Below are positions 7,595 through 39,738 of a stretch of DNA of 40,048 bases, one piece after another; positions within the stretch are counted from its first letter, which is position 1; each line of letters opens with the position of its first letter. The stretch comes from Trichomonas gallinae (lineage: Eukaryota). Both the position numbers and the translations under genes were made by a program. The DNA is taken from the NCBI GenBank assembly GCA_008369845.1, contig MRSU01003882.1:1-40048 (forward strand). Reading direction: 5' to 3'. The notes under the pieces were generated by a model. It was not told the origin of the DNA. It did not search any database and saw only the letters and a list, made by a program, of their open reading frames with translations.

Positions 7595-8323
7595 TTATTG
7601 AGAAACAAGTATAATTGGTTTTTGAACAATAATCTTTGTGTAATTCACAGAGACTTGGCGTTCTTCTGTCTGCGGGACGAAATCATGAGCTGTTTCGAAT
7701 GAGTTCGTGACCTCAATTGCAAGTTTTGGCTTTGGAGAAACATTAAAGTTCAAATTCTGGCGAATTGAGTTTAATGTCTTGCGCAATTTGAGGTTTAGCT
7801 TCTCATAGTCTGATAATTGACGGATAGAATTCCAGTTTACGATCATTCCATGGAATTTGATCTTTGAATTATCAATTTCTTCTGTGTTCTGTGGTTTGTA
7901 CAGAGAAACATCGTTCATTGTTTCCTTGATATGAGCACGAAGATCATCTAATTGCTGATGATAATTATTGATTGTGCTCTGACGTTCCTGGTCCTTCTTA
8001 TTCCTGACATCACTAATCTGAAAGTTCATCTTCTGTCTTTCCAACAAGATCTGTGTCTCAAGCTCGTCACGGAATTCTTTTTCGCGAATTGATGCCAAAT
8101 TCTGCTCATTGCGAATGGCATGTGTTAAGGAACTCTTGTTCTTCTTGAGTTCACTTGCCTTGGCCTCGTACTTAAGGTTTTCTTCTTTCATGTTCATAAT
8201 TTCTTGCTTGTTAAGCTCATGCTCTTTTCTAAGCAATGCTCTTTTGGTGGATTCTTGGTCCTTGAAGTGTGGGGACTTGATTGGTGTCCTCATTGGAGAC
8301 TTAGCTGTTGTTTCTGTGCTCAT
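7595..8323 (-). CDS. Hypothetical coiled-coil protein
   Basis: 242-aa charged helical ORF. TCATT initiator lies a few nt upstream of the ATG. Confidence 0.8.
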   Translation of the reverse strand: MSTETTAKSPMRTPIKSPHFKDQESTKRALLRKEHELNKQEIMNMKEENLKYEAKASELKKNKSSLTHAIRNEQNLASIREKEFRDELETQILLERQKMNFQISDVRNKKDQERQSTINNYHQQLDDLRAHIKETMNDVSLYKPQNTEEIDNSKIKFHGMIVNWNSIRQLSDYEKLNLKLRKTLNSIRQNLNFNVSPKPKLAIEVTNSFETAHDFVPQTEERQVSVNYTKIIVQKPIILVSQ

Positions 8324-8493
8324 AATAATGATTTAATAAAAATATGTACGTTTAGCAATTTTCGAAAATTCTTTTTTGTTTGGATAAATCACTGTATTTT
8401 CCTGTATACATCTAAATTATCAATTAAAATCGAATTTATATTTTTCTTTAACGTACATATTTGTCAAAAATCATATTTTACATGTCAAATATC

Positions 8494-8572
8494 GAACAAT
8501 AATCTTTGTGTAATTCACAGAGACTTGGCGTTCTTCTGTCTGTGGGGCGAAATCATGTACAGCTTCAAATGA
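8494..8572 (-). repeat. Diverged copy of the 3' coding end (7624-7702) of the 242-aa gene
   Basis: 8494-8542 is identical to 7624-7672 (49 bp). Similarity continues with mismatches to about 8572/7702. Confidence 0.9.
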
Positions 8573-8642
8573 TGATTTTATTTGGAGATTTTTTTTTTAT
8601 TTTATTTTTCGCATCCATTTTAGATGTTTCCTGTCTTCATGA

Positions 8643-8786
8643 GCAGGTCATTATGAAATTGTCAAACTCCTTCTCATAGATAATGGAATATATGTCAACA
8701 CCAAAGACAAAAGATTGTTGACAGCTTTGATTATTGCTTTAGAAAAAGGTCATCATGAAATCGTAAAAGTATTGAAACGTTGCTAA
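8643..8786 (+). pseudogene. Ankyrin-repeat gene fragment
   Basis: Translates as AGHYEIVKLLLIDNGIYVNTKDKRLLTALIIALEKGHHEIVKVLKRC*. It is preceded in frame by TGA and has no ATG. Confidence 0.8.
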
Positions 8787-8905
8787 ATCATGGATATCAT
8801 CATTGTTTTGCGAAAGCATGGGCCACCACAGATGTTAGATCGTTAGAAACATATAATAAAACATAAATTTGTGCAAGACGATAAAATAAAGACATTTTTT
8901 ATTAA

Positions 8906-10705
8906 ATGTTGAAAAAACCATTATTGCGGGATGTTGTTGTTCCAGAAGACTTAAAGAATGACGTTGAAGTCATGAATACAATACTCAACCTAACATCAGA
9001 AACATTCGAGACAGCAGTTGAAAAAATTACAAATATAGTTAATAACGGATTCAATCCAAAAAAGCTAATGAAATACTGCGATTCTGCTGTTGAAGTTAGA
9101 AGGTGCAAATGGAAAATATATAAAAAGCTAATTTTACTATTTTCCAAAAAATACAACGTTGAATCCCTTTTGTTCAATGATGATATTGAAACATCATTCG
9201 ACAAATACATCCCAGGAACTGTCTGCTATTGTTGTATGTACGATGATATAGGAAAACTCACAGAAATAGCGAAAAATCCACATTTTAATTACAATATGAC
9301 TGATAATGATGATAAACATCTTCTTGATATTTGTGCTTCTTATGGATCAATTAATTGCTTCAACTTTTTGAGGACCAATAATGCAGACCTTACTGACAAG
9401 ACAATAGAACTAGCTGCTGAAGGCGGAAATCTCGAAATAATTAATCAGGCTCGAACAAATGTTAATGAATTTCATGATGAGATAAACATTGCAATAAGAT
9501 ATCATCATAATCATGTCGCTGATTATTTCATCGAGAAATATGGCAACAATCAATTCAATCTCACATCTGCAACGAGGTACAATAACATTATTGCAATCAC
9601 ATACTACAATCAGTATTTGAAACATTATTATTCCATTGATGCAACTCCAAATCCAAATCAATGGCACAACAGTTATTTGAGCAACCAGCTTAATAGCGCC
9701 ATAGTTGGAGGAAACATTAATCAAATTGATAGACTTGTTGAACATGGAGCTGATCCGAATTTTGTTGAAGAGGAAGAAGATGAGGATGATAGTGACTTTG
9801 TTCATTATACATTTATTATCCTGATGACGATGAGTTTGACTATGTCATTAAGAAGTCCAAACTTTCTCCTTTATTGAGTGCCGTCGTAAGTGGAAATCAT
9901 AAAGTTGTTGAAACTCTCCTCAAAAGCGGTGCAAATCCAAACAAAATTTCAGTTCATATTTTATGAATGGAATTCATTTTTAAAACTTATAAGACGAATC
10001 CTGTGCTTTATGCAGTTCAAGCGAAAAATAAGAAAATGATTGAGCTTCTTGTTAAATATGGTGGAAGTCTTGATAGAGAAATCGAAACATCATCAAGAAC
10101 AGTTAATTTTTCATTTATAATAGAGATGGATCTCAAGTTTATTTTTAGATTTATGAAATGAGCTCAACTTCTCCTTTTATTACTGCGGTCTCAACAGGAA
10201 ACATAGAGTTTGTCGAATATCTTCTCAAACTTGGTGCTGATATTGATGCTGAAGTTACAGTTGAAGTTCATTTTTCGTTTTATTCAGTTCAATTATTAAT
10301 TTATAGTGGAATTCATTTTTAGATTTATTATGCACACATTTATTTTCTTCGAATGAAACTCATCATAATATAAAGATATTCACAGAGAAATGACACCACT
10401 AATGGTTGCAGTCAGCTACAATAACATGGATATGGTAAAGTTTTTGGTTGAGCATGGCGCAGATATTCATAAAGGAACTGAAATCCATTATTTTTCTCAT
10501 TGTATTCATTATAATTAGATTACGTTCAATATTTTAAGTTATAAGATTCATCATAATAATATGACGAAGGAATTCAACATATATTTTTGAAGTATCATAT
10601 ACATCAACGCCAGTTTCAATTGCAAAAAGAGATGCTGATCGAAAGATGGTTAAATACCTTCTTGATCTTGGTGCTACGGATAATGATGAGGATTCAGATT
10701 ATTAA
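8906..10705 (+). CDS. DUF3447-type ankyrin-repeat protein interrupted by 15 tiny inserts (about 525 aa after their removal)
   Basis: The N-terminal ORF has ICASYGSINCFNFL and AIRYHHNHVADYF. Five further intact ankyrin repeats follow in shifting frames: SPLLSAVVSGNHKVVETLLKSGANPN, NPVLYAVQAKNKKMIELLVKYGG, SPFITAVSTGNIEFVEYLLKLGADID, TPLMVAVSYNNMDMVKFLVEHGADIH, TPVSIAKRDADRKMVKYLLDLGA. The frame ends at TAA(A) 10703-10705. Coding identity is clear; functionality and junctions are inferred. Confidence 0.75.
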
Positions 10706-11838
10706 AATCATTCAAATAAATCATTTTATTTTCACAATCAAATTATTATTTTTGATTGAAGTGTCTATTTCAAGTCTATGTAATGAAACGATAATATATT
10801 TATCCAATTATTAGTGAAAATTATATAACAAGACATCAATAACAATTAATTTATTTTGATTAAAAAAAATGCAAGGAAAAATGGATATAGCCATCAGTTA
10901 TTTGGAAATACATCCTCAATAGTGTTCAAATGTAATCAATAAAGTTAGATTTAGACAACTTTTAAAAAGCTAAAATATGATGGTTACAGTTTATTCTATT
11001 ATTCTATTTCATTTGATCAAAACCAAAACTGTTAAATTTAGAGCGGTCGTGTGTCAAATAGTGAGATGTTGAAAAATGAATTACAACATTTGCAAATCAG
11101 AGCTTATCGATATGAACTCTACATGACAAAAATATATCTGATTTCAAATTAATGAATTGTTATGAGTCATCCAATACTATTACTTCGATAGTTATATATT
11201 AAAAAAAATAAATAATAAAAAACATCTTTGATTATTGCTTCAGTTAATGAACATTAGTAAAAAGTCATGTTATGTTATACTATTCCTTGCTAATGACAGA
11301 ATATAAGAGTCCGTATCTGTATATTATGTCCATTGGACTTGATTTTTTATAATTCTGCCTTTATTTCATTTGATATATTTATGACACTTTACATAAAAAC
11401 GTTGCGCGGAATTGTTGGTTCCTTTGTTTTTTAATCCTATTATACTACTAAAGTCTATGGCTCACGTATAGAATCGCCCGAGTTGAATAAATGTAAAAAA
11501 TAAAATATTGCGGTGGAAAATGGATGCTTTAACTCGTAATTATTGTTCCAAATTTAAATTAAATTGTCGTTTTCCAAATTAAACTTTCAATGATACAATT
11601 TTGAAAATTGAATATCAATTTAAAATGAAAGTAATAATAAACTTAATAGTGATAGATTCCCTGCAATTTTACGATATGCTATTGCGCCCGTAAAACACTT
11701 GAAAATTTGAAGAAATATTTGTTTACAATCTCTTCATTAGAATGTGCGCAAATTTTGAGTCAATTTTTTTTGAATCCAACTCATTTTGTTTACGTGACAG
11801 TTTTCACATCTTTGTTGAACTTTGCATATCTACATCCA

Positions 11839-13766: not shown

Positions 13767-14189
13767 TTAGAAAACGGCAGGAGCTACTGAAGCAACCTTA
13801 GGCCATAATTCTGCTGCTTCCTTAGCTACTGGTCCAGTGATAGCTGAACCCTTCATTTCACCCTTTTCGTTAATGATAACACCAGCATTATCCTGGAAAC
13901 CAATTACAACACCATCCTTGCGGCGCCAAATAGCGCGCTGGCGGACAACGACTCCCATTGAGACTTTCTTGCGGAGAGCTGGTTTACCCTTTTTGCATGT
14001 AACGACGATGAGGTCAGAAACTGAAGCAGCTGGAAGACGGTTAAGACGACCCTTATGTCCGCGAACTGAAATGATAAACATGTTCTTAGCGCCTGAGTTG
14101 TCGCAGCAGTTGATAACAGCACCAACTGGAAGACCCTCTGTCATTGCAAACTTTGTACCCTGCTGACCTGTGCGACCGCGCTTTGTAAT
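13767..14189 (-). CDS. RPL23: 60S ribosomal protein L23 (uL14); ATT at the expected start position
   Basis: Contains KRGR...[42 protein letters not shown] and [15 protein letters not shown]. It is 140 aa counted from ATT 14189. Confidence 0.95.
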
Positions 14190-14466
14190 TATGAAATTAA
14201 GGTTATAAAAACTGACGTTATATTTACATGTCAAATCAATAATATTTATTATTTTAATTAGCCAATTTATCAATTAAACTTCAAAAATTTTATGACATTA
14301 TTTGACATGTAAAATATTAAAAATTGACTTGAAAATAATCGTTTAATATCAAATGAGTTTTAACTTGATATTTCAATATATTTGTAAATTATTAATTTAT
14401 CACAGAAAAAGAAATTTGTTGCAAGTAATATATTTTTTCTTGTAAAATTTCTAATAATTTTTATTA

Positions 14467-28233: not shown

Positions 28234-31164
28234 TTACTCTATAAAACGATTAAGCTCTGGATCATGAATAAGCTCGAAAATTGGATAGAAATCAGTATGA
28301 TATGAAGTTAATAGCTCTTGTTGAATGAAATAAGGAACAATTTTTGGACTTCCATCATTAATAAGTAACAGCACAAATTTATCATCAACTTTGCATAATC
28401 TTAGTTTTGTCTCCAGTGCAATGGCTCTTGTAATCAAATGCTGAATTCCTGTTCTAAAAAGAATATTTTCTGCAGGCGAGTAGATGTAAAGAGCTTCGCA
28501 CATCATTGGAGTAACTGATACAACCGATGAACAAGCCATGGATTCTAAGTAATCGATTGAAACGAATCTGATTTTGAGAGTTTCTTCAATTTCTACTGTT
28601 TGTGTTTCTGGAGCATTATCTGTATCCATATAGATAGTAATATATCCATCTTTACATTCCATTTCTAATATATCTTCTTCAATTGTTATAATCACATCTG
28701 ATCTCTTCATTTGAACTGTAGAATAATAATATAAAGACGAATTATCGATTAAATAGACATATTTGTACCATGGCTGGAACAATTCAACAGATTCGGCAAT
28801 AATTAAAAATCCAATATCATTAACGTGAATTAATTTTGATCCACATAGAACAAAGAAGCCATCTGTTTCCTTTGTGTTATCAACACGTATGATTTCTTCG
28901 CCAAATCCGTTATCTTTTCTGTAAATTAATTTCTTTTGCTCATATTCTTCATCATAGACATATATTGTGTTTTCTGTTACAATAACAACCTGGTCACAAT
29001 CTTTTCCGTGAATGATAAATGCATTTACTACAAATTCTTCATCGAAATCCCAAATATATTCCAAAGAAATAGAATTGTTGCATTCATACATCTTATTGAC
29101 AATCAAACAACCATCAGATAATATTAAGAGGAGGTCTGATGTATCTTTCGTAATAATCTTTCTATTCTTCTTATAAAGTGTTTCATTGAGTTTGATTTCT
29201 TTTCCTACAAAATAACCATCAAATGATTCAACAGTTATTTCTTCTGGTTCTGGGATTCCTTCTTCATCTTCAACTATATCTTCGTCATCAACTATATCTT
29301 CTTCTTCGTTTTCTTCTTTTGGCTTTGATGCTTCATGTGCATGTATATGTATATCTTCTTCCTCCTCTTCTTCTATGTTAACTTCTTGTGGTAATTCTTC
29401 TTCATATTCTTCAATGATATTTTCTTGATTTTGTGTTTGTATTGTTTCTTCTTTTTCCTCATTTAGCATTTCTTCGGTTTTGTTCTCTGCTTCTGCTGTT
29501 TCTATATTAAATAATGAATCAAAGTCATCCATATGAATGTCTTCTTCAGATTTATATATTTTTGGTTCAATTTGCTGATCATTTATTTCTGCTTGATTAT
29601 TTGATTCTTCTTTTGGTTCAGGTTCTTCAGGCTTCAAATAATTATATAAAGAATCGAAATCATCGATAACAAAGTCTTCGTGTGTTTCTTCTTGAGTAAT
29701 TTTTTCTTTTTGAGAAAGTTCTTGATTTGTTTGTTCAGGTTTCAAGTTAAATAGAGAATCAAAGTCATCAATAGCAAAATCTTCATGTGCTTCTTCTTTC
29801 TCAACATTTTCTTCGATTTGATTATCTATGACATCGTGTGTTTCATCAATTTCATCTTCTTCTTCGTTTTGATTTTCTATGATCTCATCTTCGACTTTTG
29901 GTTTTGGTATATTGAAGAATGATGAGTCATCGAATTTTACGTTGCCCATTGATATTTCTTCATCAGAAGAAAGCAAAGCATTAATCAGAATTTCATTCGC
30001 TGATTTTTCGACTTTCGTTATTGGTTCTTCTTGTTCGACTGAGTCGGATAATATTTCATCAGATTTTACAATTATTTGAACTCCATTTTCGTTTATTTGC
30101 TTCTTTTCTTTATGTTTAATTTCGTCAGTTTTATCTTTTATTACTATTTGGACTTCGTTTTCGTTTATTTGCTCTTCTTCTTCATGGTTAATTTCTATGA
30201 TTTCATCTTTGACTTTTGGTTTTGGTTTATTGAAGAATAATGAGTCATCAAATTTAATGTTGCCCATTGATATTTCTTCATCAGAAGAAAGAAAAGCATT
30301 TATAGGAATTTCATTTGTGAGTTGTTCTTCTTTCTGTGTTGGTTGTTCCTGATCATCTGTATCAGATAATAACTCATCATCTTTTACTATTATTTGGACT
30401 TCATTTTCTTTTATTGGCTTCTTTTCTTCATGATTGATTTCGTCAATTTTTTCGTTAGCTTTTGGCTTTGTTTTGTTAAAGTTGAAGAAAGATGAATCAT
30501 CAAATTTAATGTCACCCATTGGAATCTCTTCGTCTGAAGACAACATAATATTTATTGGAATTTCATTTAGTTCTAGATTTTCTTGGGATTCTTTTTTATC
30601 AGTTTTTTCGGCTTTATAATCATTTTGAGACATAAGATGTATATCCATATTATCAAATCTTATAATGGTTTTGCCGTTTTCATGAACAACTTTGTATGTA
30701 GCTTTTTTTTCTTCGTTTTTTGAACTAGATTTGCTGAAATCGAAGAAAGATGAGTCATCAAATTTCATATCATCCATTGAAACCTCTTCATCTGAAGAAT
30801 ATAAAATTCTTGATGGAAGATTGTTGGCTGTTTGTTGTAATTGGTCCGTTTTTTCACGTTTTATAATTTCTAGCTTGCCTTGCTTTGATATTTCGATTGA
30901 ATGCGCAGGAGATTGAATTGTTGGTTTCGGAATTTCGGGGATATTTAGGAGATTGTCGAATCCTGAATGAGTTTTTGTCGGTTTTTCAACACTAATTTGT
31001 GACATTTGTGCAGTTGGTGGCGATTCTGATTCTTTTGGCGCATTTTCAGTCTTTGGATGGTTAATAGATAGACCAAATAAGCTTAATGTGTCTGTCTGCT
31101 TCCTCTTTTCAACTTTAAATGGATAATTTTTATTTTGGTTGTCTGATACTTTTTCATCAGACAT
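28234..31164 (-). CDS. Acidic repeat-rich protein with C-terminal beta-rich (propeller-like) domain
   Basis: 976 aa containing 4x SSDEE[IV]xMxxxKFDDSxFF and 3x EDxxxDDFDSL[FY]N, followed by a globular C-terminal region of about 330 aa. Confidence 0.85.
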   Translation of the reverse strand: MSDEKVSDNQNKNYPFKVEKRKQTDTLSLFGLSINHPKTENAPKESESPPTAQMSQISVEKPTKTHSGFDNLLNIPEIPKPTIQSPAHSIEISKQGKLEIIKREKTDQLQQTANNLPSRILYSSDEEVSMDDMKFDDSSFFDFSKSSSKNEEKKATYKVVHENGKTIIRFDNMDIHLMSQNDYKAEKTDKKESQENLELNEIPINIMLSSDEEIPMGDIKFDDSSFFNFNKTKPKANEKIDEINHEEKKPIKENEVQIIVKDDELLSDTDDQEQPTQKEEQLTNEIPINAFLSSDEEISMGNIKFDDSLFFNKPKPKVKDEIIEINHEEEEQINENEVQIVIKDKTDEIKHKEKKQINENGVQIIVKSDEILSDSVEQEEPITKVEKSANEILINALLSSDEEISMGNVKFDDSSFFNIPKPKVEDEIIENQNEEEDEIDETHDVIDNQIEENVEKEEAHEDFAIDDFDSLFNLKPEQTNQELSQKEKITQEETHEDFVIDDFDSLYNYLKPEEPEPKEESNNQAEINDQQIEPKIYKSEEDIHMDDFDSLFNIETAEAENKTEEMLNEEKEETIQTQNQENIIEEYEEELPQEVNIEEEEEEDIHIHAHEASKPKEENEEEDIVDDEDIVEDEEGIPEPEEITVESFDGYFVGKEIKLNETLYKKNRKIITKDTSDLLLILSDGCLIVNKMYECNNSISLEYIWDFDEEFVVNAFIIHGKDCDQVVIVTENTIYVYDEEYEQKKLIYRKDNGFGEEIIRVDNTKETDGFFVLCGSKLIHVNDIGFLIIAESVELFQPWYKYVYLIDNSSLYYYSTVQMKRSDVIITIEEDILEMECKDGYITIYMDTDNAPETQTVEIEETLKIRFVSIDYLESMACSSVVSVTPMMCEALYIYSPAENILFRTGIQHLITRAIALETKLRLCKVDDKFVLLLINDGSPKIVPYFIQQELLTSYHTDFYPIFELIHDPELNRFIE

Positions 31165-38343: not shown

Positions 38344-39738
38344 TTATAACAATTCTGATATGATTTCATTTGCAGCTTCAAACAAAGCTGGCAACTCTTC
38401 TATTTCAGGACAGTCATTTTCTTGGATTTCGTTGATTTTTTCTTTAATATCATGAACGAAAGATTCGAATGGATCTTGTGTTTCTATATCCATCTGCGCG
38501 AGTTTTGATAAGAATGGAAGAATTTTGTCCTTAAATAGTCCATAAATGACAGATTGATCGAAATCGAGGGCCTCAACAAGTAAATCTTCGCAAGAGTGAA
38601 AATCGAAGAATGCCAAAGGTTCAGAAAAGGCCAATTGAATGTAGATATCCCATAAAATCGGTGCTGCTAGCTGTTTTATTGTTGCGTTTGCGACACGTAA
38701 CTGCTTTACGAAGTTTTTGAGATCAAGATTATAAATTATTTTCATAATGTTGCCTGGATTTATCATTATATTAACAAACTGCAATACTATTGGAATATAA
38801 TCAGCATCACGATCTAAATCCACTCTTATAATTCTCAAAAACTCTAATAATGGAAGTGAATCTAAATCAATTATTTGTTCTTCTAAGGCAACCTTCATCA
38901 TTTCTAGTATTTTCTTATAGGATACATTGAATCTTGAGTCACCCAACGAATGAATCATGAAATCCCAGATTGCTTGGTTCTCTATAATAGTTTTAATTCC
39001 GAATTTCTGGTAAATAATGTATTCTAGTGTGGCAAGTCTGTCTGCTAAGAGTTGATTAATTGGACAATCAATAACATGATAAATAACCTCAATTGTTAGC
39101 TCAATATCGATGTTTTCTTTAGGAAGAATATTTATCATTGCATTAAATAAGTCAAATGCAAGTTCAACTCTGTAGTTATATGCTGTATCTGGAATATATT
39201 CATTTACACCCTGTAGCATCTCGATAAACAAAGCAGGATATTCATCCAATATTTTTTTCTTTAGAATCACTTCCAAACCACTTGGATTCATGATACAGTT
39301 TTTAAAGAATCTGTATGCGCAGTTAAACAATGTCGAATCTTGCAAACGTAAACTTTCGTTAAAAAGAAATAAAGTTGGATCTATTTTGAAGTATTGTTCT
39401 AAAAACTCGTCGGATTTAGAAGAGAGAACAATGAATATTTCTAAAGCAGCCCTAAATCTTGGGTCATTTCGTGGTAATTGTACGATATATCTGAAATTTT
39501 CCAAAAACTCTGTTAATTCGAAGAATCTATCAGGAAAGACAGGTATATTTTCGCATAAAACTTCAATTCCTCGTATATAATTGATGATATTTTGAGCTGG
39601 AATTTTGAGAAAAATATTTAGTTGATGCACAAGCTCTCTAATGAGTTCTTCATGTGTCATATCATTAATTTTTTCGAATTCTACAACCTTAGACTCTTCT
39701 TTGTCGCGAGAAAGATCCATGGCCAAATTCGATTTCAT
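38344..39738 (-). CDS. Hypothetical alpha-helical (ARM/HEAT-like) protein
   Basis: 464-aa L/I/F/E-rich amphipathic ORF. TCATT initiator lies just upstream of the ATG. Confidence 0.8.
   Translation of the reverse strand: MKSNLAMDLSRDKEESKVVEFEKINDMTHEELIRELVHQLNIFLKIPAQNIINYIRGIEVLCENIPVFPDRFFELTEFLENFRYIVQLPRNDPRFRAALEIFIVLSSKSDEFLEQYFKIDPTLFLFNESLRLQDSTLFNCAYRFFKNCIMNPSGLEVILKKKILDEYPALFIEMLQGVNEYIPDTAYNYRVELAFDLFNAMINILPKENIDIELTIEVIYHVIDCPINQLLADRLATLEYIIYQKFGIKTIIENQAIWDFMIHSLGDSRFNVSYKKILEMMKVALEEQIIDLDSLPLLEFLRIIRVDLDRDADYIPIVLQFVNIMINPGNIMKIIYNLDLKNFVKQLRVANATIKQLAAPILWDIYIQLAFSEPLAFFDFHSCEDLLVEALDFDQSVIYGLFKDKILPFLSKLAQMDIETQDPFESFVHDIKEKINEIQENDCPEIEELPALFEAANEIISELL

Follow-up and report, generated by a model that had tools for sequence, protein, structure and literature searches.

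The window analyzed here, a 40048-nucleotide (nt) stretch of Trichomonas gallinae contig MRSU01003882.1, contains on its + strand (8906-10705) a DUF3447/ankyrin gene which starts at ATG 8906 and ends at TAA 10703-10705. The plain open reading frame (ORF) from this ATG stops at 9877, and ankyrin repeats go on in shifting frames up to 10703-10705. We found that 15 T-rich inserts of 14 to 17 nt, 222 nt in total, interrupt this region, and that taking them out leaves a single 1578-nt frame of 525 amino acids (aa) closed by TAA 10703-10705. This architecture is real, conserved and selected, it is neither a dead gene nor the product of chance, and it departs from the intron rules known for the nearest studied relatives. 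The explanation that we prefer, at slightly less than even confidence, is that the inserts are predicted very short introns of spliceosome type, with micro-exons between them.

In 8906-9799, Pfam gave DUF3447 (PF11929) 35.1 bits for a cut-off of 26.9, and the Ank families (PF00023, PF12796) were matched there too. DUF3447 is nearly restricted to Trichomonas. The reconstructed gene, which retains the DUF3447 and Ank matches, is composed of long exons, all on the + strand, separated by five linkers. E1 (8906-9800), an open frame, carries the N-terminal domain, DUF3447, the first ankyrin repeats and an acidic tract. E2 (9815-9952), E4 (10153-10266) and E5 (10376-10483) each hold one ankyrin repeat and all pass the Ank cut-off of 21.1 bits alone, with 24.1, 23.1 and 37.6 bits, respectively. 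E3 (9989-10102) holds one weak repeat which stays under the cut-off at 13.6 bits. E6 (10587-10705), open in frame 2 and ending with the stop codon, has no Pfam match alone; in our reading, the pattern TSTPVSIAK...KYLLDLGA suggests a last ankyrin-like repeat. The single long exons align to Ank profile positions 3, 4 or 5 to 29 or 30 (4-30 for E2, 3-30 for E5), and the five interruptions all fall at the same inter-repeat place, between profile positions 30 and 3. Since the breaks share this place and the ankyrin exons beyond them are under selection (see below), the frame must be restored across the breaks.

Linkers 1 to 5 contain 1, 2, 2, 5 and 5 inserts, of 14 nt (n = 7), 15 nt (n = 5), 16 nt (n = 2) and 17 nt (n = 1). 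The preceding base is always a purine (G in 7, A in 8), and the inserts start with a TTCAT-like sequence, the majority bases T, T, C, A and T being found in 14, 14, 12, 15 and 12 of the 15. Five starts depart from TTCA(T/A), namely TTAAT, TTTAT twice, CTCAT and TCCAT. AT stands directly after the insert in 14 of 15 cases, the exception being the last insert (10573-10586), which is followed by TT. Ten small pieces lie between inserts, six of them 6 nt long and the others of 9 nt (10303-10311), 12 nt (10327-10338 and 10561-10572) and 21 nt (10117-10137). All are multiples of 3, and all ten begin with AT and end with a purine, as the initial annotation had already reported; its coordinates and letters for the six 6-nt pieces were all correct. 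Base composition alternates along the linkers, with 58% T and 4% G in the inserts, and 46% A, 22% G and 23% T in the small pieces.

A purine followed by TTCA and T or A was seen 10 times in the 312 nt of linker for 1.0 expected (Poisson p 1e-7), the expectation being drawn from the density in the window (127 occurrences on the + strand of 40048 nt, 124 on the - strand). A frame-blind rule, devised after seeing the data, sets the end of an insert at an AT located 14-17 nt after its start. This AT is unique in 12 inserts, offers two options 3 nt apart in 2 and is lacking in 1; it yields intervening pieces whose length is divisible by 3 in 10 of 10 cases (3^-10 = 1.7e-5). When each linker was shuffled, 395, 72, 90, 38 and 106 of 2000 trials for linkers 1 to 5 yielded a full-removal parse that matched the real one in completeness. 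These chance figures overstate the case, because the rule was fitted to the same data, and it is a related sequence that provides independent support.

This relative consists of two contigs of the public run X1 (a bird metagenome, contigs, marked 'DNA?') showing about 92% identity over the gene; both contigs end in the Glu/Asp tract of E1. Over 9767-10757, the alignment shows 76 substitutions and a single gap, which concerns one A of the A-run at the stop codon. Elsewhere, gaps were limited to three indels in the 5' flank (8863, 8865, 8876) and a 12-nt in-frame insertion at 9766 in the relative, which adds four acidic codons to the Glu/Asp tract and is the only coding indel. Indels between window and relative thus amount to 0 in 9767-10702 vs 4 in 125 nt of non-coding flanks (Fisher p 0.006 with the 312 linker nt and 0.016 with the 222 insert nt), and every piece keeps its length.

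A second alignment, over 10095-10600, listed 30 of 33 differences. Two more, 10105 A>C and 10118 T>G, were deduced from P0230 and P0272, two ORFs of the relative taken from two Logan contigs and reading through linker 3: as both have H where the window has N, we infer 10105 A>C, which would give TTCAT in the relative. In E3, P0230 and P0272 differ by four conservative residues. A HMMER search with E2, linker and E3 read through the TGA returned 10002 generic ankyrin matches and one close relative, P0230, at 91%. For the N-terminal 298 aa, a protein word search gave no match among longer or near-length proteins, and no related locus was found in viral_contigs or genome_contigs. The sole locus in metagenome_contigs (L001, 1-2950) was discarded as a bacterial-looking contig with a chance 18-residue match around EKYGNNQFNLT.

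Differences were classified over 10096-10570, a segment covering 11 inserts. Changes affected 4 of 33 sites at insert positions 1-3, 0 of 66 at positions 4-9 (Fisher p 0.014), 8 of 65 in insert tails, 7 of 82 in the micro-pieces and 13 of 229 in the long exons. At positions 1-3, all four changes replace a deviant start of the window (TTAAT, TTTAT, CTCAT, TCCAT) by TTCAT in the relative, and apart from these restored starts the first nine bases of the inserts are conserved. The tails change at nearly the synonymous rate, yet their length is kept. Of the 11 junctions, three show a G/A exchange of the purine before the insert (10137, 10266, 10338) and three have, in the relative, C or G for the T that is the second base after the insert (10118, 10354, 10500), while the A between these two variable positions is unchanged in the relative. 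Outside linker 3, 4 of 61 micro-exon positions are changed; in our reading two of these changes are synonymous and the rest are Asp/Asn swaps.

The ankyrin exons past the frame breaks also bear the mark of selection. E4 shows 6 synonymous and 2 non-synonymous differences (ratio 0.10), and E5 shows 1 and 3; taken together, synonymous differences make up 7 of 12 (ratio 0.19, binomial p 0.006-0.014). The ankyrin exons located past the first in-frame stop evolve as coding sequence, under purifying selection. For E1 (8906-9541), 11 synonymous and 22 non-synonymous differences gave a ratio of 0.49.

The individual pieces are as follows, the flanking bases being written with hyphens and the positions resting on the sequence and its parse. 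Linker 1 is insert 1 (9801-9814, 14 nt, G-TTCATTATACATTT-AT), which bridges frame 2 to frame 1; its removal creates the acidic run DSDFDYPDDDEFDY. Linker 2 comprises insert 2 (9953-9966, 14 nt, G-TTCATATTTTATGA-AT), the 6-nt piece ATGGAA (9967-9972), which would read (D)G(N) in the parse of the initial annotation, and insert 3 (9973-9988, 16 nt, A-TTCATTTTTAAAACTT-AT). In linker 3, insert 4 (10103-10116, 14 nt, G-TTAATTTTTCATTT-AT) starts with TTAAT in the window and, by the deduction above, with TTCAT in the relative. It is followed by the 21-nt piece ATAATAGAGATGGATCTCAAG (10117-10137) and by insert 5 (10138-10152, 15 nt, G-TTTATTTTTAGATTT-AT), where 10140 T>C gives TTCAT in the relative.

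Linker 4 begins with insert 6 (10267-10281, 15 nt, G-TTCATTTTTCGTTTT-AT), for which the relative has A for G 10266 and 10276-10277 CG>AT. Then come ATTCAG (10282-10287, 6 nt), insert 7 (10288-10302, 15 nt, G-TTCAATTATTAATTT-AT; 10297 and 10299 differ in the relative), the 9-nt piece ATAGTGGAA (10303-10311) and insert 8 (10312-10326, 15 nt, A-TTCATTTTTAGATTT-AT), which loses an AG in the relative by 10322 G>T. The 12-nt piece ATTATGCACACA (10327-10338) has its last purine changed in the relative (10338 A>G); with 10354 T>C, both flanks of insert 9 (10339-10352, 14 nt, A-TTTATTTTCTTCGA-AT) are changed jointly. The linker ends with ATGAAA (10353-10358, 6 nt) and insert 10 (10359-10375, 17 nt, A-CTCATCATAATATAAAG-AT), which terminates in AG and gains TTCAT in the relative by 10359 C>T.

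In linker 5, insert 11 (10484-10498, 15 nt, A-TCCATTATTTTTCTC-AT) becomes TTCAT in the relative by 10485 C>T, and 10500 T>C turns the AT that follows into AC. After ATTGTA (10499-10504, 6 nt), insert 12 (10505-10518, 14 nt, A-TTCATTATAATTAG-AT) has a terminal AG, changed to AC in the relative by 10516 T>C and 10518 G>C. ATTACG (10519-10524, 6 nt) differs by 10523 C>T, synonymous (TAC>TAT) in the frame of the initial annotation. Insert 13 (10525-10540, 16 nt, G-TTCAATATTTTAAGTT-AT), with no difference among those listed for the relative, is followed by ATAAGA (10541-10546, 6 nt), insert 14 (10547-10560, 14 nt, A-TTCATCATAATAAT-AT), the 12-nt piece ATGACGAAGGAA (10561-10572) and insert 15 (10573-10586, 14 nt, A-TTCAACATATATTT-TT). 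The boundaries of this last insert are uncertain, as other cuts also reach the frame of E6.

In the mechanism that we propose, the T-rich pieces would be cut from the precursor messenger RNA one by one, and the purine-rich pieces of 6-21 nt would stay as micro-exons. The 5' motif with its purine would be recognised in the manner of a parabasalid short-intron 5' splice site. Because (G/A)TTCATTTTT fits GTWYWD followed by T's in full in 6 of 15 inserts, and after the first base in 12 of 15, a descent from such splice sites is proposed, and we think that the pieces both descend from them and are recognised like them. Two cutting registers may be considered. In register A, written purine-TTCAT...-A(T/C/G), the inserts would be 14-17 nt long and each joint would split an Asp, Asn or Glu codon; the flank changes seen in the relative would then amount to D/N/E swaps or be silent. 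In register B, the purine and the two bases after the insert would be intronic; introns would measure 17-20 nt, each micro-exon would lose 3 nt and no codon would span a junction. The frame is kept in both registers. With register B, in the relative, insert 4 reads GT...AG and insert 11 reads AT...AC, and insert 9 goes from A...T to G...C. Removal from RNA, the machinery, the cut register and the retention of each micro-exon are what we infer from the sequence. Separate tiny introns are favoured by the 3n lengths, the composition, the conserved internal starts and the lack of indels; the 3n lengths and the purine-rich make-up support retained micro-exons better than the other readings tried.

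A number of observations weigh against this explanation. As drawn, the inserts start with TT, CT or TC and none is GT-AG; if the purine is taken to be intron base 1, GT starts are found in only 7 of 15, and the drawn boundary falls right after AG in 2 of 15. To our knowledge, ends of this kind are not the rule for any spliceosome. The type A and type B intron patterns (type B is presented below) had 0 matches on both strands of the window, with no TCTAAC...AACAG. The insert pattern was seen in this gene only, out of about 25 in the window. Among public runs matching 8800-10800 there was no RNA run, only X1, where all inserts are retained. The same 5-mer occurs 117 times elsewhere on the + strand, in some cases within intact ORFs, so the motif alone cannot direct removal. 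If the 3' end is not fixed, linkers 3, 4 and 5 admit 8, 381 and 108 parses that stay in frame in both genomes, and frame alone therefore cannot tell how many pieces are removed. In linker 3, 3 of the 21 positions of the micro-piece differ in the relative (10118, by deduction, 10132 and 10137), and since this is near the tail rate of 8 of 65, the retention of this piece is doubtful. Finally, in our reading, the long exons flanking linkers 3-5 appear to hold full 33-residue repeats, so that the micro-exons would not be needed for the fold.

Several of these points would be met by fewer and larger introns, one or two per linker and about 20-110 nt long, removed by the ordinary parabasalid spliceosome. 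The internal TTCAT words would then be duplicated motifs resembling 5' splice sites or branch sites, the micro-exons would be intronic, and the linkers might be partly translated. We regard this alternative as rather unlikely. Sizes of 35-110 nt are ordinary for introns, and the window offers in-frame GT-AG solutions in all linkers, 9800-9834, 9952-9993, 10102-10148, 10277-10385 and 10502-10592, of which those of linkers 1, 2, 3 and 5 speak against separate tiny introns. The single-block alternatives 9952-9993 and 10102-10148, named in the initial annotation as what could replace its parse, are indeed both in frame in the window, and the latter, like 10502-10592, holds too in the part of the relative that was surveyed (linkers 3-5). 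That of linker 3 is well formed in both genomes: TT(T/C)ATTTTTAG in insert 5 fits its branch and 3' end, and the relative reads GTTCAT...TTCATTTTTAG, where, in our reading, an A lies 7 nt before the 3' end, the spacing of the T. vaginalis branch adenosine (PMC6260720). The variation of the 21-nt piece of linker 3 (3/21) and the presence, as we read it, of all 33 ankyrin positions in the long exons around linkers 3-5 also suit this alternative. Against it, chance GT-AG paths arose in 551, 753, 269, 899 and 503 of 1000 shuffles for linkers 1 to 5, which makes the GT-AG solutions weak evidence. Linker 4 has no GT-AG solution common to window and relative: 10276-10277 CG>AT destroys the GT of the only single solution of the window, the relative having A for G at 10266 and T for G at 10277, and AG is lost at 10321-10322 and 10517-10518. 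Solutions shared by both genomes require that one of the two have an A as intron base 1. Ordinary GT-AG introns cannot account for everything. Larger introns would also place the translated peptides VHFSFYS or IHYFSH inside ankyrin loops, and they leave unexplained the 10/10 pieces of 3n length, the kept or restored TTCAT starts, the invariant positions 4-9 and 312 nt of T-rich linker devoid of indels.

Some differences between the two genomes are one-sided. All four departures from the motif that differ between the genomes are on the side of the window. Also, in frame 1 (codons 8851+3k) of 10095-10600, the window has 7 stops vs 2 in the relative, and frames 0 and 2 barely differ (12 vs 12 and 13 vs 11, window vs relative). 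In a simulation over 10096-10570, 2 of 20000 trials of random substitution starting from the window led to a loss of 5 frame-1 stops, and the reverse direction gave 0.018. No explanation on offer, including the one we prefer, accounts well for the few frame-1 stops of the relative. Both observations count against tiny introns at work in the window and hint that its copy may be degenerating. Interruptions would then not, or no longer, be removed properly, the C-terminal repeats would be relics, and the architecture might still work only in the relative. The four motif departures and the five extra frame-1 stops of the window, the relaxed ratio of E1 (0.49) and a small broken ankyrin fragment just upstream (8482-8786) agree with such decay, and large ankyrin families are usually rich in pseudogenes. 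We nevertheless consider it quite improbable, given the purifying selection on E4 and E5 (ratio 0.19, p ~0.01), the 0 indels in about 940 nt vs 4 in 125 nt of flanks, and a sole coding indel of 12 nt, in frame; decay also leaves the origin of such a regular architecture unexplained.

The scarcity of frame-1 stops would be accounted for, together with the absence of indels, if the linkers were wholly or partly translated by ribosomes that shift frame, e.g., by +1 at the first stop met. A +1 shift at a stop codon is known in Euplotes. Frame 1 of the relative is open over 10207-10588, and in our reading E4, E5 and E6 would be joined if the ribosome shifted by +1 at 10296, the first frame-0 stop, and again at 10588, a stop of frame 1. 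This recoding is very unlikely to be the explanation: in the window, as we read it, +1 shifts at 10320, 10354 and 10391 do not lead into the frame of E5, and linkers 1 and 3 need the opposite shift. It would also insert Phe/Ile-rich peptides of 30-40 residues between ankyrin repeats, and the 3n micro-pieces and conserved TTCAT starts would be left unexplained.

Four further candidates were set aside. Eliminated DNA of ciliate germline type does not agree with the standard code of the long ORFs, and no repeated pointer was seen at the insert ends. No matched take-off and landing codons for translational hopping were seen. For IRE1 or tRNA-type (transfer RNA) splicing, no such motif was noticed by eye, no folding being done. 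The inserts resemble the upstream pattern of TCATTT plus a short leader, as internal promoters might, but 6-nt pieces make no sense as genes.

Returning to very short introns, the rebuilt 525-aa frame does contain DGNK, DNRDGSQDE, DSDSGNYAHNEN and NCNYDKNDEG, as the initial annotation had it. Its alternation of inserts and small pieces stands, being kept in the relative within a selected gene, with the reservation already made for the 21-nt piece. The recovery of a canonical D-G-x-T-P ankyrin hairpin was claimed too generally. It holds loosely for linker 2 alone, where DGNKTNP is in fact D-G-x-x-T-x-P and where the repeat period is 34 vs 33 canonically, the only linker near that value; in linkers 3-5, the micro-exons would add 9-12 extra loop residues, giving periods of 47-49. 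All junctions had been said to share phase 1, and 14 of 15 do as drawn. From phase 1 and 3n exons, skipping a micro-exon would keep the frame, which is arithmetic and not evidence. The broader proposal, an array splicing of 14-20-nt non-GT-AG introns in which skipping or keeping same-phase micro-exons of 3-21 nt would draw many loop variants from one gene, appears very improbable to us.

If removed as drawn, the inserts would be among the shortest intervening sequences known, the reported minima being 15-16 nt for Stentor and 23 nt for Trichomonas vaginalis. GT-AG ends, common to nearly all spliceosomal introns, would be missing from them, and they would form arrays with two-codon exons between. 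This would stretch current ideas on how the spliceosome finds and measures introns, in a group thought to be almost intron-free, and would point to a route by which a large family of surface-binding proteins could vary its loops. Should the linkers instead be ordinary introns in which internal motifs are repeated, what is left is an intron architecture conserved to an odd degree; even so, an A at the first base would be tolerated in the introns of this lineage.

Long ORFs of up to 1749 aa run uninterrupted, in the standard code, through the A/T-rich window (27-39% G+C); two ORFs carry DUF3447 and ankyrin repeats according to Pfam. Another ORF, poly(A)-polymerase-like, was placed no more finely than Eukaryota in the Atlas. 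Scans of the window for Rfam families and tRNA gave none. The upstream ankyrin-like fragment (8482-8786, +) opens with an ATG at 8482 that meets a stop 6 codons later. It also shows a T-rich stretch (~8590-8625, about 35 nt) ending with CATCCATTTTAG and, inside a repeat, a one-base frame break; the fragment is either a broken copy or another interrupted gene. Start codons (8906, 7595-8323, 28234-31164, 38344-39738) are preceded within 6-20 nt by TCATT- or ACATTTT-like words, with very short, A/T-rich leaders. These words resemble the first bases of the ankyrin inserts, and also the Trichomonas initiator element. The short leaders, DUF3447 and the long, intron-poor ORFs together suggest that the organism is a parabasalid-like gut protist.

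Another interruption may exist in the uL14 (L23e) gene (13770-14308, - strand), which has no in-frame ATG before its conserved N-terminus; among the relatives fetched, 7 of 10 start with this N-terminus uninterrupted. ATGTCA is present at 14308 and 14298, and AAG CGC only at 14183. Given this gap between start and N-terminus, about 110 nt must be removed. A GT-AG reading (14296-14181) would yield MSNN-RGR; the homology-guided MSK-RGR needs other ends, AT...AC being one possible register. The 3' end of the gap, TTTCATAATTACAAAG, resembles ankyrin inserts 10 and 12. The uL14 query gave no match in genome_contigs or viral_contigs.

Among the literature listings on parabasalid non-canonical introns and on DUF3447, and in passages of PMC12428144, no description of such inserts was found. 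T. vaginalis introns are GT-AG with a fused branch/3' motif, GYAYGY...RCTAACACAYAG (PMC12316389, PMC6260720). The type B introns of T. vaginalis and T. stableri are 23-28 nt long and follow GTWYWD N7 TCTAAC H1-2 AACAG, with T at +8 and +9 and a branch A 7-8 nt from the 3' end (PMC6260720, PMC12316389). Like them, the inserts described here are very short, T-rich and located in a repeat-protein gene, ankyrin genes being among the type B hosts, in a parabasalid-like organism, and (G/A)TTCATTTTT may correspond to GTWYWD with T at +8 and +9. By our count, 12 of 15 starts after the purine fit TWYWD and 6 of 15 the full GTWYWD; in the relative, we read 11 of the 11 surveyed starts as fitting TWYWD. 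Unlike type B introns, the inserts have an A at the first base in 8 of 15 cases and no regular AG end, stand in tandem arrays with 6-nt pieces between, and, at 14-17 nt as drawn and 17-20 nt in register B, stay below the type B minimum of 23 nt.

Stentor coeruleus introns, found in thousands of genes, are 15-16 nt long and GT-AG with a branch A at position 10 (PMC9505925). The inserts share their size class (7 of 15 are of 15 or 16 nt), the very narrow length range and the A/T-richness, and many have, in our reading, an A at positions 10-12; they differ in having ends other than GT-AG and in forming arrays in only one gene of 40 kb. AT-AC introns, whether U12-type or U2-type, tolerate a purine other than G at intron base 1, and the U12-type consensus combines a 5' (A/G)TATCCTT with the branch TCCTTAAC. 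With the purine as base 1, insert 11 of the relative reads AT...AC, whereas most 3' ends would be AT here, and neither the U12-type 5' motif ATATCCTT nor the TCCTTAAC branch motif was present in any of the 15 inserts. Animal and plant micro-exons have 3-27 nt, lie between long introns and depend on dedicated enhancers. The micro-exons predicted here would resemble them in being 3n exons which would encode short surface loops and could be skipped without a frame shift. Unlike them, they would have between them introns below the size of any known so far from this group.

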